32,000 bases of DNA from Cereibacter sphaeroides 2.4.1. GTDB taxonomy: Bacteria; Pseudomonadota; Alphaproteobacteria; Rhodobacterales; Rhodobacteraceae. The stretch's first letter is position 1. Every line of letters begins with the position of its first letter. Below are positions 5,875 to 32,000 of the stretch, piece by piece. Below the pieces are notes generated by a model. The model did no database searches and was not told the DNA's origin. It saw only the letters and a list, made by a program, of their open reading frames with translations. Location of the stretch: the NCBI RefSeq assembly GCF_000012905.2, contig NC_009007.1, positions 1 to 32,000 of the forward strand, in the 5' to 3' direction. Both the position numbers and the translations under genes were made by a program.

Positions 5875-5936
5875 GGCTCCGGCGGATTCGGCCAAGTGCT
5901 TGAGGAGACGCGGGAAAGGGGAGGTTCCGGGAAGCC

Positions 5937-7323: not shown

Positions 7324-7373
7324 CCCCGCCATTTCCCCCTGCCCATGCCGCGCCGCGGCGTTATAGGTACGTC

Positions 7374-8312: not shown

Positions 8313-8375
8313 GGTGCGTGGACAACCTGCGGATGAGACCTTATTCCAGACAGCATAAAGACAGGGGAATTTCGG

Positions 8376-8939: not shown

Positions 8940-8942
8940 CCC

Positions 8943-12475: not shown

Positions 12476-12841
12476 GCGGCTGCTCCGATCCTGTGAGATC
12501 CGCATCCCGAGAAAGGCGCGCGCGACCGTGCGCGCAGAAGGCTCCGGACGCCGCGGGCAGGCCCCTTGGACCGGTTGAGCTTTCCCGCGGCGGCGCCCGG
12601 CAGGACCGGGGCCCGGCTGCGCCTTCCGTCTCTCGTTTCGATCCTTTGCAGAGGACAGGCCATGCTCTTCCCTCACCGGCGAGACCGCCGCGCCCGCCCC
12701 GACTGTCCCGAAATCTGCGAACGGAATCAACAGGCTCGATCTGCGAGCTTCCGGGCGCGCCGGAAAGCCCGGGCGCCGGGAGCCCCGGATCCGCGGGATG
12801 GGCCCGCCGCCCGGTCCTCGATGCGGCTCACCCCGGGGTCC

Positions 12842-13567
12842 TCAGTAGCCGAAGGCCTCCATCGCGGGGGCGGCGGCGGCCTCGACCGCCGCGCGGTCGG
12901 CGGCGGGCAGGGCGCGGTGCCGACCGACCCCGTCCGGCGGGCGCACCTCGATCCCGGTCCCGGCCGGCTCGAGCCGCAGCCCGAACTGCCGCCCGAGCCG
13001 GGCCATGCAGCCCTCGGGATCCCGGCAGAGATCCTCGAACCGCAGGATCGCATAGCGGTCGCCGAGCACCGCCTCGGCATGGCGCTTCACCCGGAGATTG
13101 CTCTCGGCCCAGAAGCGCGCCCGGTCGGCGGGCGTGCCCGGGCCCTCGGGCACATGGCGCTCATACTGCCGGCGGTTGCCCGAGAGCGCCATGTCGCGCC
13201 CGTCGCGCACCATATGGATGAAGCGCAGCCCGGGCACGAGCGCCACCGAGAAGGGCAGCAGGAACATGCTGCGGGGGTTCTTCCAGCCCCAGAAGGGCTC
13301 GCCCGCATGGAGGGCCAGATGCTCCGTCAACGCCGCGCGCCAGAGGGCCAGATCGGCCTCCTCGGGCCGGCCGCCCTCGAGAAGCCGCGCGCCGCGCGCC
13401 GCCAGCGCCTCGATCGCCGCGACCAGCGCGAGCGAATCCCCGGCCTCGTTCCGCGCGCCCCCGAGATAGCCGCCCGCCGCCCGCAGGAGCTGGCCCGCCA
13501 CCCGCGTGCCCGAGCCGCCGCTCGCGCCGAGAACGAGGGCCGGGGTCTCGGGAAGGTCCCTGTCCAT
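12842..13567 (-). CDS. Sulfotransferase family protein (second, divergent type)
   Basis: ATG at 13567 ([23 protein letters not shown]). It has a P-loop-like 5'-[24 protein letters not shown] and [14 protein letters not shown] (3'-PB-like) are typical of bacterial sulfotransferases. The rest of the 12842..14701 ORF is antisense to kdsA and is discarded. Confidence 0.7.
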
Positions 13568-13768
13568 CCGATCGTCCTTCTGCCGAAAGGCCGCAGCTTT
13601 CCCGCAGGCCCCGGGGAACTCAAGGCTCATTCGGGCCTTGCCGCCGCAGGCGACCCTCCGGCGCGCGCGCGGGGCCGGCGGGAGGCGGGACCGATGGCGG
13701 CCCCTCCGGCGGATTTGAACCCCGCGCGCGCTTGGCATAAGGGTGGGACAGAAGCGCGGGAGACGGCC

Positions 13769-14605
13769 ATGACAGAGACGCCCACCATCGTGACCATCGG
13801 CGACATCGCCATCGGGGGCGGCCATCCGATCGCGCTCATCACCGGGCCCTGCCAGCTCGAGAGCCTCGATCATGCCCGCATGATGGCCGAGCGCATCGCC
13901 GAGGCCTGCGCGCCCACCGGAACGAAGTTCATCTTCAAGGCGAGCTACGACAAGGCCAACCGCTCGTCGCTCTCGACGGCGCGGGGCCTCGGGATGGAGA
14001 AGGGGCTCGAGATCCTCGGCCGGATCCGCGAGGAGTTCGGCGTGCCGGTCCTGACCGACGTCCATGAGCCCGGCCATTGCGCGACGGCCGCCGAGGTCTG
14101 CGACGTGCTGCAGATCCCGGCCTTCCTCTGCCGGCAGACCGACCTTCTGCTCGCGGCGGGCGAGACCGGCCGCGCCGTCAACGTCAAGAAGGGCCAGTTC
14201 CTCGCGCCCTGGGACATGAAGAACGTGGCCGACAAGGTGGCCTCGACCGGCAACCGGCGGATCCTGCTCTGCGAGCGGGGCACCTCCTTCGGCTACAACA
14301 CCCTCGTGACCGATTTCCGCGGCCTGCCGACCATGGCCGCGACCGGCTGGCCCGTGGTGTTCGACGCCACCCATTCGGTGCAGCAGCCGGGGGGCCTCGG
14401 CGGCTCCTCGGGCGGGCAGCGCGAATTCGCCCCGGTGCTCGCGCGGGCGGCCTGCGCGGTGGGGGTCTCGGCGCTCTTCATCGAGACGCACGAGGATCCC
14501 GACCGCGCGCCCTCGGACGGGCCGAACATGATCCCGGTGGACCGGATGGGCCGGCTCATCGCCGATCTCTGCGCCTTCGACGCGCTGGCCAAGTCGCTCG
14601 CCTGA
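13769..14605 (+). CDS. kdsA: 3-deoxy-8-phosphooctulonate (KDO-8-P) synthase
   Basis: ATG at 13769. [51 protein letters not shown] and [11 protein letters not shown] are canonical KdsA motifs. Length is 278 aa. Confidence 0.93.
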
Positions 14606-14737: not shown

Positions 14738-15331
14738 TCAGGCCGGCCGCACGGCCCGCGCCCAGAGCGCGAAGCGTCCGTCGGTCTGCACCGTGATCTC
14801 GGCGAAACCCGCGGCGCCCAGATGGCGGGCGAGCGAGGCCGCGGTGAAGCCCGTGCGGTGGGCCATGAAATCGTTGCCTTCGGCAATGGCGGGGCGGAAG
14901 CCGTAGAGGATGTCGAGCGGCGCGATCGGTCCCAGCGCCGAGACATAGGCCGGCTCCTCGAGCAGGCCCTGCGCCACGAGGAGCGCCACCGCCTGCAGGT
15001 CGGGCAGGGTCGCGAGCAGGAAGCCGCCCGGGCGGAGCACGCGGTGGAATTCGGCCAGCGCCAGCGGCACCTCGTGCGGGCGCAGATGTTCGAGATTGTG
15101 CGAGGACCAGACCGCATCCACCGACCCGTCCGCGACCATGGGCATCCCGGTGATGCTGGCCAGGATGTCGGGCGCGACGCCCGGATCGATGTCGAGCCGG
15201 AGCTCGCGCCAGTCACCGGCGGGAAAGACATCGCCGGGCAGCTTGGCGGGATTGGCCGCGCCGCAGCCGACATGGAGGACGGTGCGCGTCTCGGCGCGGG
15301 CCTCCGGGGTCTCGAGGGTCAGGGTCTCCAT
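14738..15331 (-). CDS. Class I SAM-dependent methyltransferase
   Basis: ATG at 15331 with GGAG 8 nt upstream, 22 bp after the HlyD-family gene stop. Motif I is VLHVGCG, the post-I/II region is VDAVWSSHNLEHL, and RVLRPGGFL is a Methyltransf_11-like fold signature. Confidence 0.8.
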   Translation of the reverse strand: METLTLETPEARAETRTVLHVGCGAANPAKLPGDVFPAGDWRELRLDIDPGVAPDILASITGMPMVADGSVDAVWSSHNLEHLRPHEVPLALAEFHRVLRPGGFLLATLPDLQAVALLVAQGLLEEPAYVSALGPIAPLDILYGFRPAIAEGNDFMAHRTGFTAASLARHLGAAGFAEITVQTDGRFALWARAVRPA

Positions 15332-15353: not shown

Positions 15354-16652
15354 TCAGGGACGGGGCTCGCGCAGGCTTTCGCTCAGCCCCTCGAGCAGCG
15401 GGTCGAGGAAATAGGACAGGAGGGTGCGGCGGCCGGCAAGGATGTCGGCCGTGAGCGTCATGCCGGGCATCAGCCCCTCGGGCAGGGGGGGACCGGGCGG
15501 AAAGACCACCCGCGCCGCATGCTGGGCGGGGCCGCCGCCGGGCGGGACGGCCGAACTCGGCGCCACGTCGGCCAGCCGGCCCTCGACCATGCCGTGATGG
15601 CGCCAGGGGAAGGCATCGACCTTGACCCGCACCGGCGCCCCCGCCCGCACGAGGCCCGCATCGCGCGACAGAAGCCCCAGTTCGGCGTGAAGCCCGCCGC
15701 CTGTGGGCGCGATCACCGCCACCGGATCGGCGGGCGTCATCAGCGAGCCGGGCCCGCCCGCCGCCACCGACAGGACCACCCCGGCCCCGGGCGCCCGCAG
15801 CTCGTGCAGCCGCGCGAGATCGGCGGTCTCGGCGATCTGCTCGGCCAGAACCGCGCGCCGCGGCCGGAGGTCGGCCAGCTCCTCGAGCAGCTTCTGCCGC
15901 CGGTCGCTCTCGAAGGCGGCAAGCCGTGCCGCGGCGCCCGCGCGTTCCTGCAGGAGGCCGTCGAGCGTGGCCTCGTTCCGGCGCTGGCGGGCCTCGGCCT
16001 CGAGCCGCGCGAGCCGCGTCTCGACGAAGGCCGCCCGGGTGCCGTTCTGCCTTGTCATCAGCCGCTCGCGCATCGCCTCGAGCTCGCGCGCGGTGGCGAG
16101 CGTCTCGGCCAGTGCCGGCCGCTCGGCGCGCGCGGCCTCGATGCCGCGGTCGATCCGGGCGAGATCGGCCTCGAGCCCGCGGCGCAGCGCGGTCTCGGTC
16201 GCGGCGCGGCCGGACTGGATGCGGCCCTCGAGCGCGCGGTCGGGGCCCGTGCCCGCGAGCGGCCGACCCACCAGCTCGGCCTCGATCCGCGCGATCCGCG
16301 CCGAGAGGGCGGCGGCCTGCGCCTTCAGCTGCGCGGCATCGGCGTCGGAGGTCCGGCTGTCCAGCCGCGCGAGCAGCTGGCCCGGCGCCACCAGATCCCC
16401 CGGCCGCACAAGGAGGCTGCGCAGCACCGCGGCCGTCACCGGACGCAGGACCGCGGCCGGATCGTCGGCCGCGATCCGGCCCGCGGCGCTCACCACCACA
16501 TCGATGGGCAGGAGGGCCGCAAGCCCCACCAGCGCCGCCAGCAGCGCCCCCGCCCCGAAGGGCCAGAGCCGGAGCAGCCAGGGCAGCGGCTCGTGCCGGA
16601 TCCGTTCGAGCGGCGACTGATAGGCCAGGGCCTCGGGCGCGAGCCTCCTCAT
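15354..16652 (-). CDS. Type I secretion periplasmic adaptor (HlyD-family membrane fusion protein)
   Basis: The ATG at 16652 overlaps the ABC gene stop (ATGA). It has an N-terminal TM (LWPFGAGALLAALVGLAALLPI), a lipoyl-like segment (VLRSLLVRPGDLVAPGQLLARLD), a long coiled-coil, VRVKVDAFP and MPGMTLTADI, matching HlyD organisation. The upstream 929 codons of the 1,361-aa track ORF are an out-of-frame overlap and are discarded. Confidence 0.88.
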   Translation of the reverse strand: MRRLAPEALAYQSPLERIRHEPLPWLLRLWPFGAGALLAALVGLAALLPIDVVVSAAGRIAADDPAAVLRPVTAAVLRSLLVRPGDLVAPGQLLARLDSRTSDADAAQLKAQAAALSARIARIEAELVGRPLAGTGPDRALEGRIQSGRAATETALRRGLEADLARIDRGIEAARAERPALAETLATARELEAMRERLMTRQNGTRAAFVETRLARLEAEARQRRNEATLDGLLQERAGAAARLAAFESDRRQKLLEELADLRPRRAVLAEQIAETADLARLHELRAPGAGVVLSVAAGGPGSLMTPADPVAVIAPTGGGLHAELGLLSRDAGLVRAGAPVRVKVDAFPWRHHGMVEGRLADVAPSSAVPPGGGPAQHAARVVFPPGPPLPEGLMPGMTLTADILAGRRTLLSYFLDPLLEGLSESLREPRP

Positions 16653-18823
16653 GACAGATGCTCGGTCTGCTGGCGCCAGAGATGGGCATAGATCTCGCAG
16701 CCCGCGAGCAGCGCCTCGTGCGGGGCGAAGGCCACGAGCCGGCCCTGGTCGAGCACCGCGATCCGGTCGGCGCGCACGAGGGACGAGAGCCGGTGCGAGA
16801 CCACGATCATGGTCCGGCCGCGGGCGATGGCGGCGAGGTTGCGGTTGACCACCGCCTCGGACTCGGGGTCGAGCGCGCTCGTGGCCTCGTCGAGGATCAG
16901 GATGCGCGGATCGGTGAGCAGCGCGCGGGCGATCGCCACCCGCTGGCGCTGGCCGCCCGAGAGGTTCGCGCCCCCCTCCTCGACGGGCGTGTCGAAGCCC
17001 CGCGGCAGGCGGCGGATGAATTCGTCGGCCCCCGCAAGGGCGGCCGCGCGCACCACCGCCTCGAGCCCGGCCTCGGGGCGGGCGAGGGCGATATTCTCGC
17101 GCAGCGTGCCGCGGAAGAGCAGATTGTCCTGCAGCACGATCCCCACCTGCCGCCGCAGAGGGCCGAGCGCGATGCTGCGGATGTCGATCCCGTCGAACAG
17201 GATCAGCCCGGCCTGCGGGGTCTCGATGCCCTGGATGAGCCGGGTGAGCGTGGTCTTGCCCGAGCCCGAGCGCCCGACGATGCCGATCACCTGCCCGGGC
17301 TCGATGGCGAGGCTCACCTGATCGAGCGCGGGCGTGGCGGCGCCGGGATAGGCGAAGCTCACCCCCCGGATCTCGAGCGCGCCGGTGAGGGCGGGGCGGG
17401 CGAGGGCGGCGGTGTCGGGCCGTTCGGGCGGATGATCCATGATCCGGCGCAGCATCCCGATCGACAGGGCGGCCTCCTGCCATTCGTTGACGAGCCCCAC
17501 GATCTGGACGAGCGGCCCGCTGACCCGCCCGGCCAGCATCAGCACCGCCACGAGCGTGCCCACCGTGATCGCGCCCTCGAGCGCCAGCGCCACGCCGAAG
17601 GCCACCACGCTCACCTGCATCAGCCGCTCGAGCAGGCTGGTGAGCGTGCTCGTGACGGCCGAGACGCGGCCCAGATCCCACTGCCGGCGCACCGAGAGGG
17701 CGAGGCTCTCCTCCCAGAGCGCGCCGCGGGCGGGCTCGACCGCGAGCGATTTCACCGCGCGCATGTTGTGCAGCGTCTCGACCAGAAGCGCCTGCCGCTC
17801 GGCCTCGACCGCATAGACCGCGTTCAGCCGCCGCTGGAGGAGCGGCAGCATGAGGGCGATGCAGCCCGCGATGGCGATCCCGTAGGCCGCGATCACCAGC
17901 GCGAGCCGGCCCGACAGGAAGGCCAGCGTGGCGAAGAGCACGGGCAGGAGGGCCGCGTCGAGCAGGGTCTGCAGCAGCCGCCCGGTCAGGAACTGGCGGA
18001 TCCTGTCGGTCTGCTGGATGTTGCGCGCGAGCACGCCCGCGGGCGTGGTCTCGAACAGCGTCATGGGCAGCGAGAGCAGATGGGCCACGCTCTCGGCCCC
18101 CAGATGGGCGTCGATCCGGCCGCCCGCGATCTGGCTCAGCCGCTGGCGGACATAGCCGAAGCCCGCGTCGAACAGCGCCAGCAGCACGAAGACCGCGGCG
18201 ACCGCGGCGAGCGTGTTCCAGGCCCGGTAGGCGATCACCCGGTCGATCATCGCCTGCATGAGGAGGGGCAGCGCGTAGGAGATCAGGTTGCCGATCACCA
18301 CCGCCACCGCGACGCCGAGAAAGAGCCCCTTCTCGCGCGCGAGCGCGGGCAGGAACCAGCGCAGCCCGAAGGCGGTCTCGGCGGCCCTCGGCCGGTCGGG
18401 GCGCCCGATCAGGATCAGCCGGCCGGTCCAGTCCCGGGCGAAGTCCTCCCAGGGCAGGGGCTGCACCCCCTGGGCCTCGTTCCGCGGATCGAGGAGGGCC
18501 ACGGTCCGCGCGCCCTCGGCCCCGCCCGCATGGACCAGCACCGCCCAGTGCCCGCCCCGCAGCTCCGCCAGCGCGGGATAGGCCTGCCCGAGCCGCGAGG
18601 CGGTGCGCCAGCCCGCATCGGCCAGCAGCCGGCAGCGCAGCCCCTTGCCGCCCAGAAGCCGCAGCAGATCGGGCGCGAAATCGCCGGTCTCGAGCGGGGG
18701 CAGCTCGTCGGGGCCGAGCAGCACCCCGTGATGGGCCGCCACCAGAAACACCGCGCGCAGCGTCGACAGCACGGGCGTGTCGAGCGCGATGGACCCGGGA
18801 AGCTGGGAATCGAAGGCTGCCAT
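16649..18823 (-). CDS. Type I secretion ABC exporter (HlyB-type) with N-terminal C39-like domain
   Basis: 724 aa: a ~140-aa N-terminal peptidase-C39-like domain, a 6-TM exporter domain and an NBD. Walker A is [10 protein letters not shown], the signature is [15 protein letters not shown], Walker B is ILILDEATSALD, and the H-loop is VSHRL. At the position of the C39 catalytic Cys (D-C-G) this protein reads D-T-P. Confidence 0.92.
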   Translation of the reverse strand: MAAFDSQLPGSIALDTPVLSTLRAVFLVAAHHGVLLGPDELPPLETGDFAPDLLRLLGGKGLRCRLLADAGWRTASRLGQAYPALAELRGGHWAVLVHAGGAEGARTVALLDPRNEAQGVQPLPWEDFARDWTGRLILIGRPDRPRAAETAFGLRWFLPALAREKGLFLGVAVAVVIGNLISYALPLLMQAMIDRVIAYRAWNTLAAVAAVFVLLALFDAGFGYVRQRLSQIAGGRIDAHLGAESVAHLLSLPMTLFETTPAGVLARNIQQTDRIRQFLTGRLLQTLLDAALLPVLFATLAFLSGRLALVIAAYGIAIAGCIALMLPLLQRRLNAVYAVEAERQALLVETLHNMRAVKSLAVEPARGALWEESLALSVRRQWDLGRVSAVTSTLTSLLERLMQVSVVAFGVALALEGAITVGTLVAVLMLAGRVSGPLVQIVGLVNEWQEAALSIGMLRRIMDHPPERPDTAALARPALTGALEIRGVSFAYPGAATPALDQVSLAIEPGQVIGIVGRSGSGKTTLTRLIQGIETPQAGLILFDGIDIRSIALGPLRRQVGIVLQDNLLFRGTLRENIALARPEAGLEAVVRAAALAGADEFIRRLPRGFDTPVEEGGANLSGGQRQRVAIARALLTDPRILILDEATSALDPESEAVVNRNLAAIARGRTMIVVSHRLSSLVRADRIAVLDQGRLVAFAPHEALLAGCEIYAHLWRQQTEHLS

Positions 18824-18937: not shown

Positions 18938-20710
18938 TCAGGCGCGGCGGGCGACCGAGAGCAGGGCCGCCTCGAAACGGCGGGTGAAATCGCGGCAGTC
19001 GCCCAAGGTGAGGCTCCAGCGCTCGGCGAGGGCGGGCCCCGTCAGGGCGGGGGCCGCCGCCGGGTCGGTGGCGATCGCCACAGCGCGGGCGACATAGGCC
19101 TCGAGGTCGGGGGCGATGCAATCTTCCAGCCCCACCGCCGTGAGGAGGCTCGCCGCCATCCGGCCCGAGAAGGTCCGCCCCGCGAGCGTGAGCAGGGGCA
19201 GCCCCATCCGGAGCGCGTCCGAGGCGATGGTCCCGGCATTGTAGGGCATCGTGTCGAGAAAGAGGTCGGCCAGCGCCAGCCGCGCCCGGTAGCGGGCGGG
19301 ATCGACGCGGGGGGCAAAGATCAGCCGGTGGGGGTCTAGGCCCGCCGCCTGCCAGCGGCCGGCCAGCGCCGCCTGCCCCTCGGGCGTATCCGCGACGAGC
19401 CACAGGACCGACCCCGGCACGGCCGCGACGATCCGGCACCAGGCGGCGAAGAGGGGCTCGGTGATTTTGTAGAAATGCGAGGCGCAGGCGAAGACGAAGG
19501 CGGCCTCCGGCAGGCCCTCGCCCGGGCGGTCGACGGCGGGCAGCAGGGGCCGTTGCCCGTCGTTGGCCTGATAGCAGCCCTCGAGCCGGAGCGGGGCCGG
19601 GCGGTAATGGGCGGCCTCGGCCTCGGGCACGGTCACTCGGTCGCAGATCAGCCAGTCGAGCTCGGGCAGCGGGACCGGCCCGATATAGCCCAGATAGGTC
19701 GCCTGCACCGGGGCGGGCTTCCAGCGCAGGATGCCCGGCCGGGCGCCGCGGGTCAGCCCGTTGAGATCGATCAGCAGGTCGATCTCGTCGGCGCGGATGC
19801 GCCGGGCCGCGGCCTCGTCGGAGAGGGGGCCGATCGGCACATGCCGGTCGAGGGCGGCGAGCACCCGCGCGCGCTCGGGGCTGCCGTCCTCGGGCGAGGC
19901 GCAGTAGCCCACCACCTCGAACCGGCTGCGGTCGTGGCGCTCGAGCAGTTCGGCGATGAGGAAGCTCATGGCGTGGCGGCAGAAGTCCGACGAGAGATAG
20001 CCGAGCCGCAGCCGGTCGTGGCGGTAGCCCCCGGCCGGGGCGAGCCGAATGCCCGGATCGGGCACATGCCGGGCGATCCAGGCCGCGGCCACCTCGCCCT
20101 GCCGAAGGGGATCGTCATGCAGCGCGAGGGTGGCGAGCGGGCCGCACTGCAGCTCGGCCTCGGCCTCGGTCAGGCCGGGGACGGCGAGCCGGGCCGGGGG
20201 CCAGGCCGCCATCTTCTGGCGGGCATGGACGAGATGCTGCACCACCTCGGGCTGGCGGGGATCGAGGAGAAGCGAGGCCCGCAGCTCCTCGGCGGCCTCC
20301 GCGAGCCGGCCCTCGGCCTCGAGCATCCGGCCGAGCTGGCGGTGGAGCTGGCGCCGCCCCTCGGCCGGGGGCAGCACCTGGCGCAGGAAGGCCAGCGCCT
20401 GCGTCCGGTCGCCCTGCGCCTCGGCCGCCTGACCGGCCGCGAGGGCCGCCTGCCACAGATCCGGCTTCTGGCGGAGCGCGGTGGCGGCCGCGCCGAGCGC
20501 CCCCTGCGGCTCGCCCGCAGCCTCGAGCAGCACCGCGAGATTGAACCAGGCGATCCAGGCGTCGGGCCGCTCGGGATGGAGCGCGAGCCAGCGGCGGTAG
20601 ATCTCGATCGCCGCGGCGGGGGCGGCCTCGGCCAGACCCACCAGCTGCTCGGCCGTGAGCGGGGGAGAGACGGAGCCGATGGGCAGGATCGGGGCGGGCT
20701 GCACCGTCAT
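18938..20710 (-). CDS. TPR-containing GT41-family glycosyltransferase (O-GlcNAc transferase / SPINDLY-like)
   Basis: ATG at 20710 with GAGGAG ~7 nt upstream (the track ORF starts at GTG 20734). The N-terminal ~190 aa are TPR-like. The C-terminal catalytic region aligns by eye with eukaryotic OGT motifs as I recall them: LRLGYLSSDFCRHAMSFL vs VGYVSSDFGNHPTSHL (catalytic His), PVQATYLGYIGP vs PIQAMWLGYPGT, FYKITEP vs LYKIDP (UDP-binding Lys), and LFLDTMPYNAGTIASDALRMGLPLLTLAG vs [29 protein letters not shown]. Confidence 0.85.
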   Translation of the reverse strand: MTVQPAPILPIGSVSPPLTAEQLVGLAEAAPAAAIEIYRRWLALHPERPDAWIAWFNLAVLLEAAGEPQGALGAAATALRQKPDLWQAALAAGQAAEAQGDRTQALAFLRQVLPPAEGRRQLHRQLGRMLEAEGRLAEAAEELRASLLLDPRQPEVVQHLVHARQKMAAWPPARLAVPGLTEAEAELQCGPLATLALHDDPLRQGEVAAAWIARHVPDPGIRLAPAGGYRHDRLRLGYLSSDFCRHAMSFLIAELLERHDRSRFEVVGYCASPEDGSPERARVLAALDRHVPIGPLSDEAAARRIRADEIDLLIDLNGLTRGARPGILRWKPAPVQATYLGYIGPVPLPELDWLICDRVTVPEAEAAHYRPAPLRLEGCYQANDGQRPLLPAVDRPGEGLPEAAFVFACASHFYKITEPLFAAWCRIVAAVPGSVLWLVADTPEGQAALAGRWQAAGLDPHRLIFAPRVDPARYRARLALADLFLDTMPYNAGTIASDALRMGLPLLTLAGRTFSGRMAASLLTAVGLEDCIAPDLEAYVARAVAIATDPAAAPALTGPALAERWSLTLGDCRDFTRRFEAALLSVARRA

Positions 20711-20962
20711 GGGGATCTCCTCGGTTTGCGGCACCTTCGCCGCTTCCGGTTAAGGGAGTCCTCATGCCGGGCCTGACCTCTTCCGTGTGCGCCGCGAGCC
20801 CGCTTCAATTTTAGGAGGAAACGCGCGGTCGCGGCGGGCGGCGTTAGGACTTTCCTTACCGCCGCTCGGAAGAATGCCGGAAATCACGGAGGCCAGCATG
20901 GCTCCGCATGCTGGTGGATGCGCCCAGGAAATGCGTGCGCCCCGCCCCATAGGGTGAGTGTG

Positions 20963-23900
20963 ATGACCGACTTCAGCAGCAAGACCACAGCAGAGATCGC
21001 GGCCCTGACGAGCGCCGAGGTCGCCAGCATGTCGAGCCAGGATCTGGCCGCCCTCTCCACCGCCCAGATCGCGGCGCTCACCGCCCAGCAGATCGGCTGG
21101 GTCAAGGCGGCGTCGCTGAAGGGGTTGGGGGATGCGCAGGTGGTGGCGCTGACGACGGCGCAGGCGGCGGCGCTCGGCTCGGCGCAGCTGGCCGCGCTGA
21201 CGACGGCGCAGGTGGCGGCGATGGAGACGGCCGATCTCGCGGCGCTCTCGGCCACGGGGGTGGCGGGGCTGACTTCGGCGCAGCTCGGGGGGCTCTCGAC
21301 CGGTCAGGTGGCGGCCCTCACCACGGCGCAGGTCGCGGCCCTGTCCAGCGTGGCGGTCAAGGGTCTGGGCTCGGTCCAGGCCTCGGGTCTCACGACGGCC
21401 CAGGTGGCCGCCCTGTCGACCGCCCAGCTCAAAGCCTTCTCGACCGCGGGCATGACGGGGCTCGGCACGGCGCAGATCGTGGCGCTCTCGAGCGCGCAGG
21501 CGGCGGTGCTCGGCTCGGCACAGGTCGCGGCGCTCACGACGGCGCAGGCGGCGGCGATGGAGACGGCCGATCTCGCGGCCCTCACCAGCGTGGCGGTGAA
21601 GGGGCTGAGCTCGACCCAGGTGGGCGCGCTGACCACGGCGCAGGTGGCGGCGCTGACCACGGGACAGCTCGGCGCGCTCTCGACCGGGGCGCTGAAGGGC
21701 CTGACCACGGCGCAGGTGGTTGCCCTGACCACGGCGCAGGCGGCCGGGCTCGGCTCGGCGCAGGTGGCGGGCCTCTCGAGCACGCAGATCGCGGCGCTGG
21801 AGACGGCGGATCTGGCCGCCCTCTCCTCGGCGGGGCTGAAGGGGCTCGGATCGGCGCAGGCCGCGGGCTTGACGACGGCGCAGGTGGCGGCGCTCACGAC
21901 GGCTCAGGTGGGCCAGCTTTCGAGTGCCGCGCTGAAAGGGCTCGGCACGGCGCAGGTGGTGGCACTGACGACCGCGCAGGCGGCGGCGCTCGGCACGGCG
22001 CAGGTGGGCGCGCTCTCGACCGCACAGGTGGCGGCGCTCGAGACCGTCGATCTCGCGGCGCTCTCGACGGCGGCAGCGAATGCCCTGACCTCGGCTCAGG
22101 CCGCGAGCCTCACGACGGCGCAGGTGGCCGCGCTGACGACGGCGCAGGTTGCGGCGCTCTCGACGGGGGCGGTGAAGGGGCTGAGCTCGACCCAGGCGGG
22201 CGCGCTGACCACGGCACAGGTGGCGGCGCTGACCACAGGACAACTGGGCGCACTCACGACGGCGGCGCTGAAGGGCCTGACCACGGCGCAGGTGGTGGCA
22301 CTGACCACGGCGCAGGCGGCGGGGCTCGGCTCGGCGCAGGTGGCGGGGCTCTCGAGCACGCAGATCGCGGCGCTGGAGACGGCGGATCTGGCCGCGCTTT
22401 CCACGACGGGGCTGAAGGGTCTGGGCTCGGCGCAGGCCGCGGGCCTGACCACGGCGCAGGTGGCGGCGCTCACCACGGCTCAGGTGGGCCAGCTCTCGAG
22501 TGCCGCGCTGAAAGGGCTCGGGACGGCGCAGATCGTGGCGCTGACGACGGCGCAGGCGGCGGCGCTGGGGTCGACGCAGGTGGCCGGGCTCTCGACCGCG
22601 CAGGTGGCGGCGCTGGAGACGGCCGATCTCGCGATGCTCTCGACCGCGGGGGTGAAGGCGCTGAGCTCGACGCAGGTGGGCGCGCTGACGACGGGGCAGG
22701 TGGCGGCCCTGACCACGGCGCAGGCCGCCCAGCTCTCGACGGCGGCGCTGAAGGGCCTGAGTTCGACGCAGGTGGCGGCCCTGACGACGGGGCAGGTGGC
22801 GGCCCTGACCACGGCCCAGCTCGGCGCGCTGACGACGGCGGCGCTGAAGGGCGTGACCACGGCGCAGGTGGTGGCGCTGACCACGGCGCAGGCGGCGGGG
22901 CTCGGCTCGGCGCTGCTGGCGGGCCTGTCGAGCACGCAGATCGCAGCGATCGAGACGGCGGATCTGGCCGCGCTCTCCACCACCGGGCTGAAGGGTCTGG
23001 GCTCGGCGCAGGCGGCGGGCCTGACCACGGCGCAGGTGGCCGCCTTCACCACGGCGCAGGTGGGGCAGCTTTCGACGGCGGCGCTGAAGGGGCTCGGCAC
23101 GGCGCAGGTGGTGGCGCTGACCACGGGCCAGGCGGGGGCGCTCGGCTCGGCGCAGGTGGCGGGTCTCTCGACCGCGCAGGTGGCGGCGCTCGAGACGGCC
23201 GATGTCGCGGCGCTCTCGACGGCGGGGGTGAAGGGCGTGGGCTCGGCGCAGGCGGCGGCCCTCGGCTCGGCGCAGGTGGCAGCGCTGACGACGGCGCAGG
23301 TGGGCCAGCTTTCGACCACGGCCCTGAAGGGCTTCGGCTCGGTGCAGGCTTCGGGTCTCACCACGGCGCAGGTGGCGGCGCTGACCACGGCGCAGCTCTC
23401 GCAGCTCTCGACGGCGGCGGTGAAGGGGCTCGGCACCGCGCAGATCGTGGCGCTGACCACGGGCCAGACGGCAGCGCTCGGCTCGGCGCAACTGGGCGCC
23501 CTCTCGACGGCGCAGGTGGCGGCCTTCGAGACGGCGGATGCCGCGGCGCTGACCACGACGGCGCTGAAGGGGCTGACCACGGCGCAGGTGGTGGCGCTGA
23601 CGACGGGTCAGGCGGCGGCGCTCGGCTCGGCGCAGGTCGCGGGCCTGTCGAGCACGCAGATCGCGGCGCTCGAGACGGCGGATCTCGCGGCCCTGACCAC
23701 CACGGCGGTGAAGGGCCTGGGCTCGACGCAGGTTTCGAGCCTGACGACGGGGCAGGTGGCGGCGCTCACCACCGTGCAGGTGGCGGCGCTGAGCACGGCG
23801 GCCGTGAAGGGCGTGGGCTCGGTGCAGGCCTCGGGGCTGACGACGGCGCAGGTGGCGGCGCTGACCACGGCCCAGGTGGCCCAGCTCTCGACGGCGGCGC

Positions 23901-25648
23901 TGAAGGGGCTCGGCACGGCGCAGATCGTGGCGCTGACCACGGCCCAGGCGGCCAAGCTCGGCTCCGATCAGGTCGCCGCCCTCTCGACGGCGCAGGTGGC
24001 GGCGCTGGAGACGGCGGATCTGGCGACCCTCTCGGCCACGGGCGTGAAGGGCTTCGGATCGGCACAGGCGGCGGCCCTCGGCTCGGCACAGGTGGCGGCG
24101 TTCACCACGGCGCAGGTGGCGGCGCTGACCACGGCGGCGGTGAAGGGCTTCGGCTCGGTGCAGGCCTCGGGCCTCACCACCGCGCAGGTGGCCGCGCTGA
24201 CCACGGCGCAGCTCTCGCAGCTCTCGACGGCGGCGGTGAAGGGGCTCGGCACGGCGCAGATCGTGGCGCTGACCACGGGCCAGACGGCGGCGCTCGGCTC
24301 GGCGCAGCTGGGTGCCCTCTCGACGGCGCAGGTGGCGGCCTTCGAGACGGCGGATGCCGCGGCGCTGACCACGACGGCGCTGAAGGGGCTGACCACGGCG
24401 CAGGTCGTGGCGCTGACCACGGGTCAGGCGGCCGCCCTCGGCTCGGTGCAGGTGGCGGGTCTCACGACCGCGCAGATGGCGGCGCTCGAGACGGCGGATC
24501 TCGCGGCCCTCACCACCACGGCGGTGAAGGGGATCACCACCGCCCAGATGGGGGCGCTGACGACGGGACAGGTGGCAGCCCTCACCACGGCGCAGGTGGC
24601 CGCGCTTGCGGGCACGGCGGTGAAGGGACTGTCCTCGACCCAGGCGGGGGCGCTGACGACGGCACAGGTGGCGGCGCTGACCACGGCCCAGGTGCCCCAG
24701 CTCTCGACGGCGGCGCTGAAAGGGCTCGGCTCGGCCCAGATCGTGGCGCTGACCACGGCCCAGGCGGCCGTCCTCGGCTCGGCGCAGCTGGGCGCCCTCT
24801 CGACGGTGCAGGTGGCGGCGCTCGAGACGGTCGATCTCGCGGCCCTGACCACCGCGGCCGTGAAGGGCCTCGGCTCGGCCCAGGTCGCGGGCCTGACCAC
24901 GGGCCAGGTGGCGGCCCTCACCACGGCGCAGATGGCCCAGCTCTCGACGGCGGCGATCGCGGGTCTGGGATCGGTGCAGGCCTCCGGCCTGACCACGGGC
25001 CAGGTGGCGGCCCTCACCACCGATCAGCTCGCCCGGATCACCACCGCGGCGGTGAAGGGGCTCGGCACGGCGCAGATCGTGGCTCTGACCACGGCGCAGG
25101 CGGCGACGCTCGGCTCGGCGCAACTGGCCGCGCTTTCGACGGCGCAGGTGGCGGCCTTCGAGACGGCGGATGTGGCGGCGCTGACCACCGCAGCGGTGAA
25201 GGGCTTCGGGACAGCGCAGGTGGCGGCGCTGACCACCGGGCAGGCGGCCGCCCTTGGCTCGCGTCAGGTGGGCGCGCTTTCCACGGCGCAGGTGGCGGCG
25301 CTCGAGACGGCGGATCTCGCAGCCCTCACCACCGCGGCCGTGAAGGGTCTGGGATCGGCGCAGGCGAAAGTCCTGACGGCGGCGCAGATGGCCGCGCTCA
25401 CCTCGGCTCAGGTGGCGGCCCTCACCACGACCGCCGTGGCAGGCTTCGGCTCGGTGCAGGCGGCGGCGCTCACCACGGCGCAGATGACGGCGCTCACCAC
25501 CGCGCAGATCCCCACCCTGACCACGGCCGCCATCAAGGGTCTCGAAACCGCCGATATCGCGGCGCTCACCACGACGCAGGCGTCGGCCTTCACGGCCACG
25601 CAACTGGGGGCCATGTCGAGCGCCCAGATCGCGGCTCTCTTCCTCTGA
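20963..25648 (+). CDS. Giant octapeptide-repeat protein (194 x L-T-T-A-Q-V-A-A-type repeats); function unknown, candidate T1SS cargo or O-glycosylation substrate
   Basis: ATG at 20963 (MTDFSSK) is in an ORF open from 20918 to the TGA at 25646-25648. Third codon positions are almost uniformly G/C in this frame. The in-register antisense ORF has its third positions on this frame's first positions (many A of Thr codons), so the + strand is the coding one. A strong hairpin plus T-rich tract lies just downstream. There is no Sec/Tat-like N-terminus and no recognised domain. Confidence 0.8.
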   Translation: MTDFSSKTTAEIAALTSAEVASMSSQDLAALSTAQIAALTAQQIGWVKAASLKGLGDAQVVALTTAQAAALGSAQLAALTTAQVAAMETADLAALSATGVAGLTSAQLGGLSTGQVAALTTAQVAALSSVAVKGLGSVQASGLTTAQVAALSTAQLKAFSTAGMTGLGTAQIVALSSAQAAVLGSAQVAALTTAQAAAMETADLAALTSVAVKGLSSTQVGALTTAQVAALTTGQLGALSTGALKGLTTAQVVALTTAQAAGLGSAQVAGLSSTQIAALETADLAALSSAGLKGLGSAQAAGLTTAQVAALTTAQVGQLSSAALKGLGTAQVVALTTAQAAALGTAQVGALSTAQVAALETVDLAALSTAAANALTSAQAASLTTAQVAALTTAQVAALSTGAVKGLSSTQAGALTTAQVAALTTGQLGALTTAALKGLTTAQVVALTTAQAAGLGSAQVAGLSSTQIAALETADLAALSTTGLKGLGSAQAAGLTTAQVAALTTAQVGQLSSAALKGLGTAQIVALTTAQAAALGSTQVAGLSTAQVAALETADLAMLSTAGVKALSSTQVGALTTGQVAALTTAQAAQLSTAALKGLSSTQVAALTTGQVAALTTAQLGALTTAALKGVTTAQVVALTTAQAAGLGSALLAGLSSTQIAAIETADLAALSTTGLKGLGSAQAAGLTTAQVAAFTTAQVGQLSTAALKGLGTAQVVALTTGQAGALGSAQVAGLSTAQVAALETADVAALSTAGVKGVGSAQAAALGSAQVAALTTAQVGQLSTTALKGFGSVQASGLTTAQVAALTTAQLSQLSTAAVKGLGTAQIVALTTGQTAALGSAQLGALSTAQVAAFETADAAALTTTALKGLTTAQVVALTTGQAAALGSAQVAGLSSTQIAALETADLAALTTTAVKGLGSTQVSSLTTGQVAALTTVQVAALSTAAVKGVGSVQASGLTTAQVAALTTAQVAQLSTAALKGLGTAQIVALTTAQAAKLGSDQVAALSTAQVAALETADLATLSATGVKGFGSAQAAALGSAQVAAFTTAQVAALTTAAVKGFGSVQASGLTTAQVAALTTAQLSQLSTAAVKGLGTAQIVALTTGQTAALGSAQLGALSTAQVAAFETADAAALTTTALKGLTTAQVVALTTGQAAALGSVQVAGLTTAQMAALETADLAALTTTAVKGITTAQMGALTTGQVAALTTAQVAALAGTAVKGLSSTQAGALTTAQVAALTTAQVPQLSTAALKGLGSAQIVALTTAQAAVLGSAQLGALSTVQVAALETVDLAALTTAAVKGLGSAQVAGLTTGQVAALTTAQMAQLSTAAIAGLGSVQASGLTTGQVAALTTDQLARITTAAVKGLGTAQIVALTTAQAATLGSAQLAALSTAQVAAFETADVAALTTAAVKGFGTAQVAALTTGQAAALGSRQVGALSTAQVAALETADLAALTTAAVKGLGSAQAKVLTAAQMAALTSAQVAALTTTAVAGFGSVQAAALTTAQMTALTTAQIPTLTTAAIKGLETADIAALTTTQASAFTATQLGAMSSAQIAALFL
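20981..25636 (+). repeat. 24-bp periodic coding tandem array (194 units, 4,656 bp) with 120/240-bp super-repeats
   Basis: The unit is approximately GCG CTG ACC ACG GCG CAG GTG GCG. 6 codons + 194x8 codons + 3 codons equals the ORF length exactly, consistent with no net register shift. The register was checked by eye at both ends and through several internal stretches. Confidence 0.85.
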
Positions 25649-25661
25649 CATAGAGGGAGCA

Positions 25662-25732: not shown

Positions 25733-28700
25733 TCAGATCACGAAGAAATCCGCGGCCGTCAGGCCGAGCCCCGCCGAGAGGGTCGCGATCTGCACCCGCG
25801 CGCCCCCTCCGGTGCCGTCGGCATCGAACCAGAGCGCCCCGGTGTCGCGCTCATAGAGGATCCGGTCGGCCGCATCGGTGGCCTGTCCCGAGAGGTTGGA
25901 GGCAAAGGCCGCCCCGCGCAGCGCCCCCGCCGGAAGGCCGCGGAACACCGCATTTTCCAGATGGATCACGTCGTCGGCCACGTTGAAATCCGCGATCCGG
26001 TCGATCGCGCCGGGCCCGGGGCGGGTGTTGAAGACAAAGCTGTCGCGCCCGGCGCCGCCGATCAGCAGATCCGCCCCGCCGCCGCCGCTCAGCGTGTCGT
26101 TGCCGGCGCCGCCGCTCAGCCGGTTCGCGCCGCCATTGCCGATCAGCAGGTTCGAAAGCCCGTTGCCGGTCCCCGAAAGGTTCGCCGTGCCCGTCAGCAC
26201 CAGCGTCTCGAGCTGGGCGCCCAGCGTGTAGCTGACCGAGGCGCGCACCACATCCACCCCCTGGCCCGCGCGCTCCACGATCGTGTCGCCGCCATCGGTG
26301 ATGTAGGTGTCGTTGCCCGTCCCGCCGATCATGACGTCGCGCCCGCCGCCGCCGTTCAGCGTGTCGTTGCCGGCAAGCCCCTGCAGCCGGTTCGCCCCGC
26401 CATTGCCGGTGAGCAGGTTCGCAAGCCCGTTGCCGGTGCCCGACAGGGCAGCCCCGCCGGTCAGCACCAGCCGCTCGACATTGGCGGCCAGGGTCCAGGA
26501 GAGGCTGCTCTGCACCGTGTCGATACCGCCCCCGGCCAGCTCGATCGTGCTGTCCCCGGCATGGTTGACGATATAGCGGTCGTTGCCCGTGCCCCCCACC
26601 ATCCGGTCGCGTCCGCCGCCGCCGTCGAGCAGGTCGTTGCCCGCGCCGCCCGACAGAAGGTCATTGCCGCCCCGGCCCTCGATCCGGTCGTTGCCGCCGA
26701 ACCCCTCGATCCGCTCGGCATTGGCCGTGCCGATCAGCCGGTCGTTGCCGCCCGAGCCGCGGAGCGTGCCGTCGAGGAGGGTGGCCACCCCCACCGGCAC
26801 CGGCGTGGCCGAGGAGATGGCGCTGGGGAAGGGCGGCACGAGGCGTAGGCTGAAGCTCTCGGTATTCTCGAGCACGAGATCGTCGAGGATGGGGATGAGA
26901 ATTTCGGCCCGGGTCTGGCCGGGCAGGAAGACCACCTCGCCCGACCGGGCGGCGAAGTCGCTGCCCGGGCGGGCCGTCCCGGCGAGGGTCTGGAAGCCGA
27001 TGGCGATCCGCTCGGCCGAGGCGGCCGAAAGCTCGACCACGAAGACCGCGACCCGGCCGCCGGGCCCTTCCTGCAGCGTGGCATGGCCGACCGAGACCGA
27101 GCGGTTCAGCCCCACCCCGTCATTGTCGAGCACCCAGCCGCCGGTGGACAGGGCGCGGTTGCCGCCGCCGAACTGCGCGCCGCGGGGATCGCTCAGATCG
27201 AGAAAGAAGCTCTCGTCGATCTCGTCGAGACTGTCGTTGTAGGAACGGATGCGGAGGGTCTGCACCGTCTCGCCGGGGGCGAAGGTGAGGGTGCCCGAGG
27301 GGGCCGTGGAATAGAAATCCTCGTCGAGCAGCGCGGTGCCGGAGCGGAACTGGTAATCCACGCTCACCGCGTCGGTCGCGGGCTCGGAGAGCCGGATCGT
27401 ATAGGTGAGGTAGCTGCCCTCGACCACCCGGTCGCCTTCGACCGAGATCACTGGCACCGGCCCGTCGTCGTTCAGGATCTCGGCCGTGCCGGTGGCGGCG
27501 GGCACGCCATGGGCGCCGGTGACGGCCAGACCGAAGGTCTCGCCCGCCTCGACCGCGCCATCGTTGATCAGATTGACCGCGACCGTGGCCTCGGTCTGGC
27601 CGGCGAGGAAGGTGACGGTGCCGGTGCGGGCAACATAATCCGCGCCTGCCCGGGCCGAGCCGTCATGGGTCGTGTAGGTGAAGCTGCGGTCGGTGGTGAA
27701 GGCCTCCGACAGCGTGAGGGTGAAGAGCGCCTGCCCGCCTGCGGCCTCGGTCACCACCGGGTTCGAGACGGCCAGTGCCCGGTTCACCCCCACGCCGTCA
27801 TTGTCGATCACCCAGCCCGTCGTGACGAGGGTCGAGATGTTGGCGCCGAACCGCGCGCCCTGCGGTTCGCTCAGCTCGAGAAAGAAGCTCTCGTCGATTT
27901 CGTCGAGACTGTCGTTGTAGGAGCGGATGCGGAGGGTCTGCACCGTCTCGCCCGGGGCGAAGGTGAGCGTGCCCGAGGGGGCGGTGGAATAGAAATCCTC
28001 GTCGAGCAGCGCGGTGCCCGAGCGGAACAGGTAATCCACGCTCACCGCGTCGGTCGCGGGCTCGGAGAGCCGGATCGTATAGGTGAGGTAGCTGCCCTCG
28101 ACCACCCGGTCGCCCTCGACCGAGATCACCGGCACCGGCCCGTCGTCGTTCAGGATCTCGGCCGTGCCGGTCGCGGCGGGCACGCCATGGGCGCCGGTGA
28201 CCGCGAGGCCGAAGGTCTCGCCCGCCTCGACGGCGCCATCGTTGATCAGATTGACCGCGACCGTGGCCTCGGTCTGGCCGGCGAGGAAGGTGACTGTGCC
28301 GGTGCGGGCCACGTAATCCGCGCCCGCCCGGGCCGACCCATCGTAGGTCGTGTAGGTGAAGCTGCGGTCGGTGGTGAAGGCCTCCGACAGCGTGAGGGTG
28401 AAGAGCGCCTGCCCGCCCGCGGCCTCGGTCACCACGGGGTTCGAGACGGCCAGCGCCCGGTTCACCCCCACGCCATCGTCGTCGATCACCCAGCCCGCGG
28501 TGACGAGGGTCGAGATGTTGGCGCCGAACTGCGCGCCCTGCGGATCGCTCAGTTCGAGAAAGAAGCTCTCGTCGATCTCGTCGAGCCTGTCGTTGTAGGA
28601 CCGGATCTGGAGGGTCAGCACCGTCTCGCCGGGGGCGAAGACGAGCGTGCCCGAGGGGGCGGTGGAATAGAAATCCTCGTCGAGCAGCGCGGTGCCGGAG

Positions 28701-28822
28701 CGGAACAGGTAATCCACGCTCACCGCATCGGGGGCGGGCTCGGAGAGCCGGATGGTGTAGGTGAGGTAATTGCCCTCGACGACGGGGGTGCTGGTGACGC
28801 TGAAGGTCGGAAGAATGGCCAT
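25733..28822 (-). CDS. Calx-beta repeat / RTX (hemolysin-type calcium-binding) secreted protein, T1SS substrate
   Basis: ATG at 28822 (MAILPTFSV); the track ORF begins at an upstream TTG. It has six Calx-beta-like modules (VVEGxYLTYTIRLSEP..VSVDY..SGTA..DEDF, DESFFLELS). The C-terminal ~330 aa carry many GGxGxD nonapeptides (GGNDRIEGRGGNDLLSGGAGNDLLDGGGGRD). The protein ends in ...LTAADFFVI, typical of alphaproteobacterial T1SS C-terminal signals. Confidence 0.88.
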   Translation of the reverse strand: MAILPTFSVTSTPVVEGNYLTYTIRLSEPAPDAVSVDYLFRSGTALLDEDFYSTAPSGTLVFAPGETVLTLQIRSYNDRLDEIDESFFLELSDPQGAQFGANISTLVTAGWVIDDDGVGVNRALAVSNPVVTEAAGGQALFTLTLSEAFTTDRSFTYTTYDGSARAGADYVARTGTVTFLAGQTEATVAVNLINDGAVEAGETFGLAVTGAHGVPAATGTAEILNDDGPVPVISVEGDRVVEGSYLTYTIRLSEPATDAVSVDYLFRSGTALLDEDFYSTAPSGTLTFAPGETVQTLRIRSYNDSLDEIDESFFLELSEPQGARFGANISTLVTTGWVIDNDGVGVNRALAVSNPVVTEAAGGQALFTLTLSEAFTTDRSFTYTTHDGSARAGADYVARTGTVTFLAGQTEATVAVNLINDGAVEAGETFGLAVTGAHGVPAATGTAEILNDDGPVPVISVEGDRVVEGSYLTYTIRLSEPATDAVSVDYQFRSGTALLDEDFYSTAPSGTLTFAPGETVQTLRIRSYNDSLDEIDESFFLDLSDPRGAQFGGGNRALSTGGWVLDNDGVGLNRSVSVGHATLQEGPGGRVAVFVVELSAASAERIAIGFQTLAGTARPGSDFAARSGEVVFLPGQTRAEILIPILDDLVLENTESFSLRLVPPFPSAISSATPVPVGVATLLDGTLRGSGGNDRLIGTANAERIEGFGGNDRIEGRGGNDLLSGGAGNDLLDGGGGRDRMVGGTGNDRYIVNHAGDSTIELAGGGIDTVQSSLSWTLAANVERLVLTGGAALSGTGNGLANLLTGNGGANRLQGLAGNDTLNGGGGRDVMIGGTGNDTYITDGGDTIVERAGQGVDVVRASVSYTLGAQLETLVLTGTANLSGTGNGLSNLLIGNGGANRLSGGAGNDTLSGGGGADLLIGGAGRDSFVFNTRPGPGAIDRIADFNVADDVIHLENAVFRGLPAGALRGAAFASNLSGQATDAADRILYERDTGALWFDADGTGGGARVQIATLSAGLGLTAADFFVI
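27200..28822 (-). repeat. 678-bp (226-aa, two Calx-beta modules) tandem repeat, ~2.4 copies, near-identical
   Basis: The antisense track ORFs 27678..27920 and 28356..28598 encode nearly identical peptides at an offset of exactly 678 bp. The protein repeats PVPVISVEGDRVVEGSYLTYTIRLSEPATDAVSVDY... almost verbatim. The lower boundary is approximate. Confidence 0.8.
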
Positions 28823-30286: not shown

Positions 30287-30360
30287 GGGGCGGCTCTCGG
30301 AGAGGGGGGTGGTCCGCCCGCCGGGTCCGGCGGGAGGACCGGGCCGGGAGGGGGCCCGGC

Positions 30361-31080: not shown

Positions 31081-31091
31081 GAAGTCTCTCC

Positions 31092-31967: not shown

Positions 31968-31970
31968 GGC

Positions 31971-32000
31971 TCAGACCGCGCCCATGCGGCGCCGGCTCCA
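31971..32000 (-). CDS. cysT: 3' end of an upstream gene, probably sulfate permease CysT (partial, runs off the window)
   Basis: A stop codon (TCA on +) at 31971-31973 lies 3 nt upstream of the cysW start. Only 9 sense codons are visible, so the identity is inferred purely from cysT-cysW-cysA operon convention. Confidence 0.35.

Follow-up and report, generated by a model that had tools for sequence, protein, structure and literature searches.

A TPR-containing GT41 glycosyltransferase of Cereibacter sphaeroides and its conserved genetic link to an octad-repeat protein, a candidate substrate for O-glycosylation and type I export

We analysed a 32,000-nucleotide stretch (hereafter "the window") of the 124-kb plasmid b of Cereibacter (Rhodobacter) sphaeroides 2.4.1, which carries RepA and ParA genes and, at 18938..20710 on the minus strand, a gene for a 590-amino-acid (aa) protein with tetratricopeptide repeats (TPRs) and a GT41 glycosyltransferase domain. 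On the other strand, at 20963..25648, lies a gene for a 1,561-aa protein built of 194 octads of the Pfam family ALTTAQ_rpt (PF20080), a candidate substrate for glycosylation and type I secretion. Roughly a hundred further stretches of bacterial genomes contain this pairing, usually accompanied by a dedicated export pump. We propose, with a probability of roughly two in three, that five genes (encoding the GT41/TPR enzyme, the ALTTAQ protein, a HlyB-type ATP-binding cassette (ABC) transporter, a HlyD protein and an S-adenosylmethionine (SAM)-dependent methyltransferase) form one module that yields a modified extracellular repeat protein, through O-glycosylation in the cytoplasm followed by type I export.

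The conservation of the gene pair was assessed in both directions. An alignment of the enzyme was used to scan one genome per GTDB species, which gave 80 loci in Paracoccaceae and Acetobacteraceae at 53-98% identity, and the proteins of the window were compared by phmmer with the six-frame open reading frames (ORFs) of these loci. An ALTTAQ ORF stood beside the GT41 gene in 72 of the 80, and five of the remaining eight have less than ~1.1 kb of upstream sequence. Both flanks reach 8 kb or more in 37 loci (the full-flank loci), of which 36 carry an ALTTAQ gene, 22 an ABC gene, 26 a HlyD gene and 18 the methyltransferase gene; no other gene family was broadly conserved around the pair in the flanks of the forward-scan loci. 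For the reverse test, a fragment of the repeat was searched by tblastn against 72,556 plasmids. It matched 19 records, and all 19 had a GT41 match within ~12 kb. This conserved synteny, forward and reverse, excludes chance adjacency.

The pair is kept in different arrangements. A divergent order with a short gap was seen at 47 loci (median ~110 bp, measured stop-to-stop), and the enzymes at 62-76% identity (Rhodovulum, R. capsulatus, Amaricoccus) all have a large divergent neighbor assigned to ALTTAQ by Pfam. In Paracoccaceae the GT41/ALTTAQ pair is divergent, and genes for the methyltransferase, HlyD and ABC proteins often follow it. Acetobacteraceae have ABC-HlyD-ALTTAQ-GT41a-GT41b on a single strand and the methyltransferase gene on the opposite one. 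A plasmid of Pseudomonas asturiensis carries a methyltransferase gene, three ALTTAQ ORFs, a GT41 gene (46% identity) and TolC-HlyD-ABC, and Rhizobium replicons carry ALTTAQ followed by GT41 at 35-37% identity. Some Betaproteobacteria also have the pair, and the identity of the enzyme overall goes down to ~35%. The first-pass annotation, made from this stretch alone, had named the neighboring gene product as a candidate substrate of the enzyme. With the pairing retained in Paracoccaceae, Acetobacteraceae, Rhizobium, Pseudomonas and some Betaproteobacteria, which span several bacterial orders, and in at least two gene orders, the comparison supports the repeat protein as a far better candidate substrate than the window alone could show.

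The neighbor had been described as a periodic, Ser/Thr-rich protein that starts 252 bp away on the other strand. This description proved accurate: the divergent intergenic region between the RefSeq coding sequences of the two genes (20711..20962) is exactly 252 bp long, and the protein contains 23% Ser plus Thr in a strict 8-residue period. Both promoters presumably lie within these 252 bp, although a promoter and terminator consensus scan of the region returned nothing useful and a sigma-70-like consensus was not seen there. The protein is composed of 27.5% Ala, 16% Thr, 14% Leu, 9% Gln and 7% Ser, with 0.1% Asn and 1.4% Asp. Its 194 octads run in one unbroken register from residue 9 through the last residue, with the consensus (T/S)-A-Q-h-A-(A/G)-L-(T/S/G), typically TAQVAALT. 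Position 1 is Thr or Ser in 96% of the octads, position 2 Ala in 70%, position 3 Gln in 69% (otherwise Ala or Asp) and position 7 Leu in 88%; position 4 is occupied by V/L/A/I, position 5 by A/K/G and position 6 by A/G. At position 8, Thr or Ser accounts for 67%, Gly for 22% and Glu for 9%. The Pfam ALTTAQ_rpt profile matched 57 stretches of the protein (1191.6 bits, E=0).

ALTTAQ proteins share both of their ends. The common N-cap is M(S/T)TIS(S/T)LTTAQIAALST..., and in ~35 orthologues the C-terminus reads ...ETxDIAALTDxQVAGFTTTQIGAMTxxQxNALF(A/L/T/V), right up to the stop codon. In the window protein the conserved C-terminal cap consists of the last four octads (...LETADIAALTTTQASAFTATQLGAMSSAQIAALFL; 25550..25645, plus strand) and is a candidate uncleaved type I secretion signal. 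A signal peptide or hydrophobic leader was not visible in the ~35 orthologues, which were judged by inspection without a predictor. The wider family comprises ~657 clusters at 50% identity (E <=1e-10), its longest member having 4,335 residues; many contigs end inside the repeat gene, and several repeat ORFs exceed 3,200 residues. The R. capsulatus repeat protein (6941-9712 of locus L004) shows three registers, implying two indels, whereas the other ALTTAQ proteins examined keep one.

An ORF in such DNA could in principle be artefactual, and its position next to a glycosyltransferase gene coincidental. High-GC repetitive sequence of this kind (local GC ~75%) does carry a second long frame, a 1,629-aa Arg/Gly-rich ORF antisense to the repeat gene (20762-25651, minus strand), which is no gene but a shadow ORF of the high-GC periodic DNA. 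The plus frame has a GC content of 0.93 at third codon positions, which supports it as the coding strand. Together with the Pfam match, the N- and C-caps conserved in orthologues and the synteny, this already refutes an artefact, and we give that explanation practically no weight.

RefSeq and GenBank name the repeat protein "ICE nucleation protein", "heme utilization protein" or "large exoprotein involved in heme utilization or adhesion". Neither profile matches nor the predicted helical fold supports any of these names. Identity with ice nucleation proteins was rejected on three grounds: there was no Ice_nucleation match in Pfam or NCBIfam, the consensus is different, and the model consists entirely of short helices and is not a beta-solenoid. 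Membership of the RTX family was likewise rejected, as a HemolysinCabind match was absent and Asp makes up 1.4% of the residues.

The product of 18938-20710 (RefSeq WP_011836188) is, on the evidence of profiles and a predicted structure, a true GT41 (OGT/SPINDLY-family) TPR glycosyltransferase. The longest ORF for it opens at a GTG at 20734. The Pfam profile Glyco_transf_41 (PF13844) matched with E=2e-59 and 201.7 bits against a curated cutoff of 25, and several N-terminal TPR matches fall within residues 34-169. In a phmmer search of PDB the best matches were human OGT (hOGT; 7e-66), split in pieces around the hOGT intervening domain, and XcOGT of Xanthomonas campestris (6e-63), in a single stretch over residues 46-589. 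An AlphaFold2 (AF2) model, computed from an alignment of 13 orthologues and of moderate confidence (pLDDT 76), has nine N-terminal helices followed by alternating beta/alpha lobes, that is, a TPR superhelix and a two-lobed GT-B fold. Foldseek with this model returned XcOGT first (TM 0.64-0.82), then hOGT, SPINDLY (SPY) and TtOGT, with overall TM scores of 0.6-0.8. Profile, PDB matches and predicted fold thus agree with the earlier view of the protein as an OGT/SPINDLY homologue, and the Pfam matches and the model likewise place TPRs ahead of the catalytic part. No signal peptide was visible in the enzyme. The C. sphaeroides protein is without a ~30-residue N-terminal extension (M.MPF.LPFP.P.D...) that is present in 12 of 12 aligned orthologues.

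Residue conservation was read from the alignment of the 13 orthologues (A1) and from a second alignment (A4) of both ALTTAQ-linked GT41 types and P0121, an XcOGT homologue with 95% identity. Three motifs had been named as catalytic or UDP-binding and called intact. On alignment to hOGT and XcOGT both key residues are retained: the His of GYxSSDFxxH as H246 (GYLSSDFCRH), equivalent to hOGT H558 and XcOGT H218, and the Lys of (L/F)YK(I)xP as K415 (FYKITEP), equivalent to XcOGT K388 and to the diphosphate-binding Lys of hOGT, K842. Each is invariant in the 13 orthologues, in both ALTTAQ-linked subfamilies and in P0121. The third motif, LDTxxxNGxT...G(T/L)P(M/L)(V/L)T, was found as LDTMPYNAGT...GLPLLT. 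Across deep divergence, the equivalents of hOGT H558, K842 and D925 and the LDT...N.GT motif do not vary.

The role given to the His needs revision, although its presence stands. H246 is not the equivalent of hOGT H498, and calling it catalytic is outdated, as both H498 and H558 were later judged too distant from the acceptor to serve as base (PMC9715652). The H498 position is held by H198 in the window enzyme, by H/F/Y/I/V/W among its orthologues and by T/A/S in other ALTTAQ-linked enzymes and P0121 (Ser in the latter), and SPY has Leu there (PMC9715652). Given this variability in the clade and the Leu of SPY, H498 is not a defining feature.

The identity of the donor sugar can be approached through the position of hOGT C917. 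The residue there is said to set the size of the pocket, with Tyr disfavoring N-acetylglucosamine (GlcNAc), and Tyr is also found in SPY (Y744), XcOGT (Y463) and TtOGT (Y419); XcOGT and TtOGT have little or no O-GlcNAc activity in vitro, for which donor choice was given as the reason (PMC9715652). The small residue (Cys) that marks the UDP-GlcNAc-using OGT and leaves space for the N-acetyl sugar is not present in the window enzyme, which has Tyr490 (in PYNAGT), and this Tyr is invariant in the clade. Tyr490 therefore disfavors UDP-GlcNAc as donor. Judging from this position, the donor sugar is probably not GlcNAc, the transferred sugar is probably a hexose or deoxyhexose, and the database name "O-linked GlcNAc transferase" probably gives the wrong sugar.

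To model the repeat, a 224-residue fragment was submitted to AF2 with an alignment made of other segments of the same protein. The model (pLDDT 93, pTM 0.85) shows one helix of 5-6 residues per octad (positions 1 to 5/6) followed by a turn of 2-3 residues. Each helix is immediately preceded by position 8 and has Gln as its third residue, a capping-box pattern. No informative solved analogue of this rod was found; the best was mesothelin, at a TM of 0.3-0.4.

This geometry bears on an explanation without sugar transfer, in which the Thr/Ser period is purely structural, serving as helix caps, and the GT41 homologue acts as a TPR chaperone or secretion adaptor. The capping-box pattern fits that explanation, as does the scant O-GlcNAc activity of XcOGT and TtOGT in vitro. 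On the other hand, the missing GlcNAc activity is accounted for by donor choice (PMC9715652), and the invariance of the H558, K842 and D925 equivalents and of LDT...N.GT would be unexpected in a non-catalytic scaffold. In addition, a methyltransferase of a kind that modifies sugars or proteins travels with the pair. We therefore regard a purely structural role as quite improbable.

Downstream of the GT41 gene in the window are three genes whose membership of the same conserved module had escaped the first-pass annotation. The first (16649..18823, minus strand) encodes a 724-aa HlyB-type type I secretion ABC transporter (Pfam ABC_membrane and ABC_tran; TIGR01846 type_I_sec_HlyB, 3e-172). It has an extra N-terminal domain without a Pfam C39 match, for which a PDB sequence search gave no informative match. 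The second (15354..16652, minus strand) encodes a 432-aa HlyD-family membrane fusion protein (TIGR01843, 1e-60; Pfam HlyD_3). The third (14738..15331, minus strand) encodes a small class I SAM-dependent methyltransferase of 197 aa (Pfam Methyltransf_11, 3e-11), for which the PDB sequence search also yielded nothing informative, the best entry being 3BUS ("Methyltransferase", E=0.004). Orthologues of this methyltransferase occur in the Pseudomonas and Accumulibacter loci as well, and in Acetobacteraceae the ABC gene is found immediately upstream of the ALTTAQ gene and shares its strand.

From these components we propose the following sequence of events. In the cytoplasm, the TPR domain would hold the extended, nascent or unfolded repeat chain, and the GT-B domain would place a monosaccharide on the Thr/Ser hydroxyls at each octad boundary, giving up to ~190-320 glycosylation sites per molecule. 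The methyltransferase would methylate the sugar or the protein. HlyB and HlyD, with a TolC encoded elsewhere, would then export the chain C-terminus first, with the conserved ...NALF-x end serving as the signal. Once outside, the chain would fold into a long rod with one short helix per octad, forming a surface or matrix fiber.

An enzyme tied to the module might instead act on another target: an exporter component, the Calx-beta/RTX protein encoded nearby in the window, or a wider cytoplasmic set. Such a set is reported for eukaryotic OGT or Yersinia HmwC, and there are reports of bacterial GT41 enzymes with several targets (PMC11329713). The Accumulibacter pair adjoins flagellar genes, and flagellar regulons include GT41-like TPR enzymes that carry an OGT annotation (BCAL0111). 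Against such targets, the ALTTAQ gene is the only one that nearly always accompanies the enzyme (36 of the 37 full-flank loci). Conservation is lacking for the RTX/Calx-beta gene, 30-40% of the loci are without ABC and HlyD genes, and the pair persists where there is no exporter gene within 10 kb, as in Rhodovulum (L002). Another target is in our judgment unlikely.

Glycosylation of the repeat protein, as we propose it, gains a further aspect from the two ALTTAQ-linked enzyme subfamilies. Type b, with PYNAGT[IV]ASD, comprises the window enzyme and the other Paracoccaceae enzymes, with a Pseudomonas variant PFNAGTTAND. Type a, with PYGAH[TS]TA and a C-terminal extension, is the sole type in Rhizobium and is paired with type b in Acetobacteraceae; each type is linked to ALTTAQ genes. 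At one acetobacterial locus (L060) the two are tandem paralogues (8037-10001 and 10004-11767; PYGAHTTASD and PYNAGTVASD, respectively) that follow the ALTTAQ gene, and 22 other Acetobacteraceae loci are arranged likewise. At all two-enzyme loci except one (L076, 62%), octad position 2 is Thr (LTTTQ) in 77-93% of the octads, as compared to only 5-34% at the one-enzyme loci (LTTAQ). A third Thr that appears together with a second enzyme is the covariation expected if each enzyme serves one Thr position. The predicted ALTTAQ rods have hundreds to more than 400 helix-turn octads of identical length, in chains of ~900 to more than 4,000 residues. As a tentative extension, and one we consider somewhat doubtful, the ALTTAQ proteins could constitute an unrecognized class of mucin-like exoproteins, bearing a sugar (perhaps methylated) every 8 residues that dedicated OGT-like enzymes attach in the cytoplasm, with one subfamily per Thr position.

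Several observations weigh against the proposed module. In ~40% of the full-flank loci no ABC gene lies within 10 kb. ALTTAQ genes are missing within 10 kb at two GT41 loci (L037 and L083), and a third (L080) has none in ~3.7 kb of upstream and 10 kb of downstream sequence. Among the betaproteobacterial ALTTAQ loci, one (L093) showed neither a GT41 gene nor any glycosyltransferase gene, and another (L096) has a GT4 enzyme in place of GT41, together with ABC transporter and membrane fusion protein (MFP) genes. Given the capping-box pattern, the conservation of Thr/Ser at positions 8 and 1 and of Gln at position 3 is explicable without glycosylation, and the covariation of the third Thr with the second enzyme, falling within one clade, is effectively one evolutionary event. 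Gene content, conserved residues and synteny are what the data show, and from them we infer glycosylation and secretion of the repeat protein. Chains pass through type I systems unfolded, and passage of one with hundreds of sugars is unproven. Finally, a full-text search of the literature brought up nothing on ALTTAQ/PF20080 proteins, on a link between GT41 and type I secretion, or on this system.

Other genes in the window were considered as possible parts of the system. A gene at 25733..28822 on the minus strand, convergent with the ALTTAQ gene, encodes a 1,029-aa Calx-beta and RTX protein (Calx-beta, 2.5e-78; HemolysinCabind, 3e-28). This protein has near-identical internal repeats of ~230 residues and C-terminal RTX nonapeptides, and is of the classical type I substrate type. 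The same exporter probably takes this protein as a further substrate, in this plasmid alone; as a conserved partner it was rejected, since its conservation does not extend beyond Cereibacter. Sugar and sulfate genes lie at 7374-14605 (GT2, rfbCBDA for dTDP-rhamnose, two sulfotransferases and kdsA), with a sulfate ABC transporter at 29777-32000. These local genes hint at a sulfated or rhamnose-containing glycan. The dTDP-rhamnose operon is 7 kb away in this plasmid, and the local sugar and sulfate genes may supply the donor in this strain. They were not retained as part of the module, as they are not conserved: the rfbB ORF was matched in 9 loci only and the sulfotransferases in fewer than 8.

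The pair has relatives outside the scanned families. In Accumulibacter (L094), ALTTAQ occurs with GT41 and the methyltransferase. A GT41 gene of Ralstonia (37% identity) has no ALTTAQ ORF within 12 kb. A betaproteobacterial branch of ALTTAQ proteins, 400-700 aa in length, combines octads with a C-terminal Ca-binding-like domain, a feature shared with RTX exoproteins, and is encoded beside ABC/MFP genes (L096 and L097). The label of this domain, PF26745 "SPM", is that of the database, and its description is not confirmed. Octads fused to the "SPM"-labelled domain, with an S/T-P motif, were seen at L097 and in two proteins (P0307 and P0430); the S/T-P stands where FrpC-type modules carry a cleavable D-P. 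Besides its ABC/MFP genes, L097 encodes an FkbM methyltransferase and a linked GT41 enzyme (5298-8924, minus strand), which is a 1,208-aa fusion of a C39-peptidase-like domain at its start with TPRs and GT41.

Bacterial TPR-containing GT41 enzymes are widespread, structures have been solved for XcOGT and TtOGT, and for the XcOGT-like ones substrates and donors are largely unassigned, so the link described here makes the question testable. One GT41 clade, with two subfamilies, is linked specifically and conservedly to one repeat-protein family, and C. sphaeroides 2.4.1 and Rhodobacter capsulatus, both of them genetically tractable model organisms, carry the pair. If the proposal is true, the substrate rule would be an 8-residue sequon on a repetitive chain, the donor likely a sugar other than GlcNAc, and the co-conserved methyltransferase would have a role. 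It would also imply a new kind of type I-secreted glycoprotein fiber. Under the more tentative mucin-like reading, the large XcOGT-like branch of bacterial GT41 would gain its first class of native substrates, and type I secretion would be able to carry densely glycosylated chains; glycosylation might in addition hold the chain unfolded until export. The misleading names "ICE nucleation protein" and "heme utilization protein" are corrected in any case.

Among known systems, the enzyme is closest to XcOGT (XCC0866; PDB 2JLB/2VSY), its best full-length match with ~30% identity. The two have in common a short layout of TPRs and GT-B without the metazoan intervening domain, and the Tyr at the hOGT C917 position. 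They differ in the motif PYNAHTTASD of XcOGT, which in this clade is an invariant PYNAGTIASD (H to G, T to I). XcOGT was also considered as a member of an ALTTAQ pair and rejected. In Xanthomonas and in the Stenotrophomonas orthologue (L090, 8919-11707; L091, 8914-11701) it is the third gene of hemA-prfA-XcOGT, without a type I exporter beside it, and its start overlaps the prfA stop codon. The E. coli operon has prmC, the gene for the release-factor methyltransferase, in the same slot, and the hemA-prfA-XcOGT context may be a lead to the native substrate of XcOGT.

Human and metazoan OGT and plant SPINDLY belong to the same family and have the same fold, with TPRs before the catalytic lobes and shared equivalents of K842 and H558. 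The window enzyme differs from hOGT in lacking the intervening domain and in having only ~4-5 TPRs; the H498 position is variable in its clade, and C917 is replaced by Tyr, which in SPY excludes GlcNAc (PMC9715652). hOGT has thousands of nucleocytoplasmic targets, whereas here the genetic linkage with one candidate substrate suggests that the enzyme is a dedicated one.

A large repetitive exoprotein with an 8-residue period also invites comparison with other surface proteins. SwmA and oscillin of cyanobacteria are large, repetitive RTX-type exoproteins of the type I class that are reported to be glycosylated and so offer a precedent, and the cited passage describes no dedicated GT41 partner for them (PMC3034196). 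They contain Ca-binding GGxGxD nonapeptides, of which the window repeat protein has none. With ice nucleation proteins, the sole likeness is an 8-residue period rich in Thr/Ser/Ala/Gly.

The nearest precedents in logic are HMW1C/HMW1, NGT and the Synechococcus Ogt/pilin system, in which one exported surface protein has a GT41-family enzyme in the cytoplasm that is encoded alongside it or that it requires (PMC3012730, PMC10507012, PMC9306852). As in HMW1C/NGT and Synechococcus Ogt/pilin, the proposed module would have a dedicated cytoplasmic GT41 enzyme and one exported protein, with many sites modified before export. In contrast, HMW1C/NGT enzymes have no TPRs and modify Asn in N-X-S/T, and their substrate leaves through Sec and two-partner secretion; here the enzyme is of the TPR-containing, O-linking type, the candidate substrate contains 0.1% Asn, and the linked exporter is type I. 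The logic of a dedicated glycosyltransferase with one exported surface protein is thus already known, and what is new is the O-linking clade of TPR-GT41 enzymes, a candidate substrate made of octads, and export by the proposed type I route.

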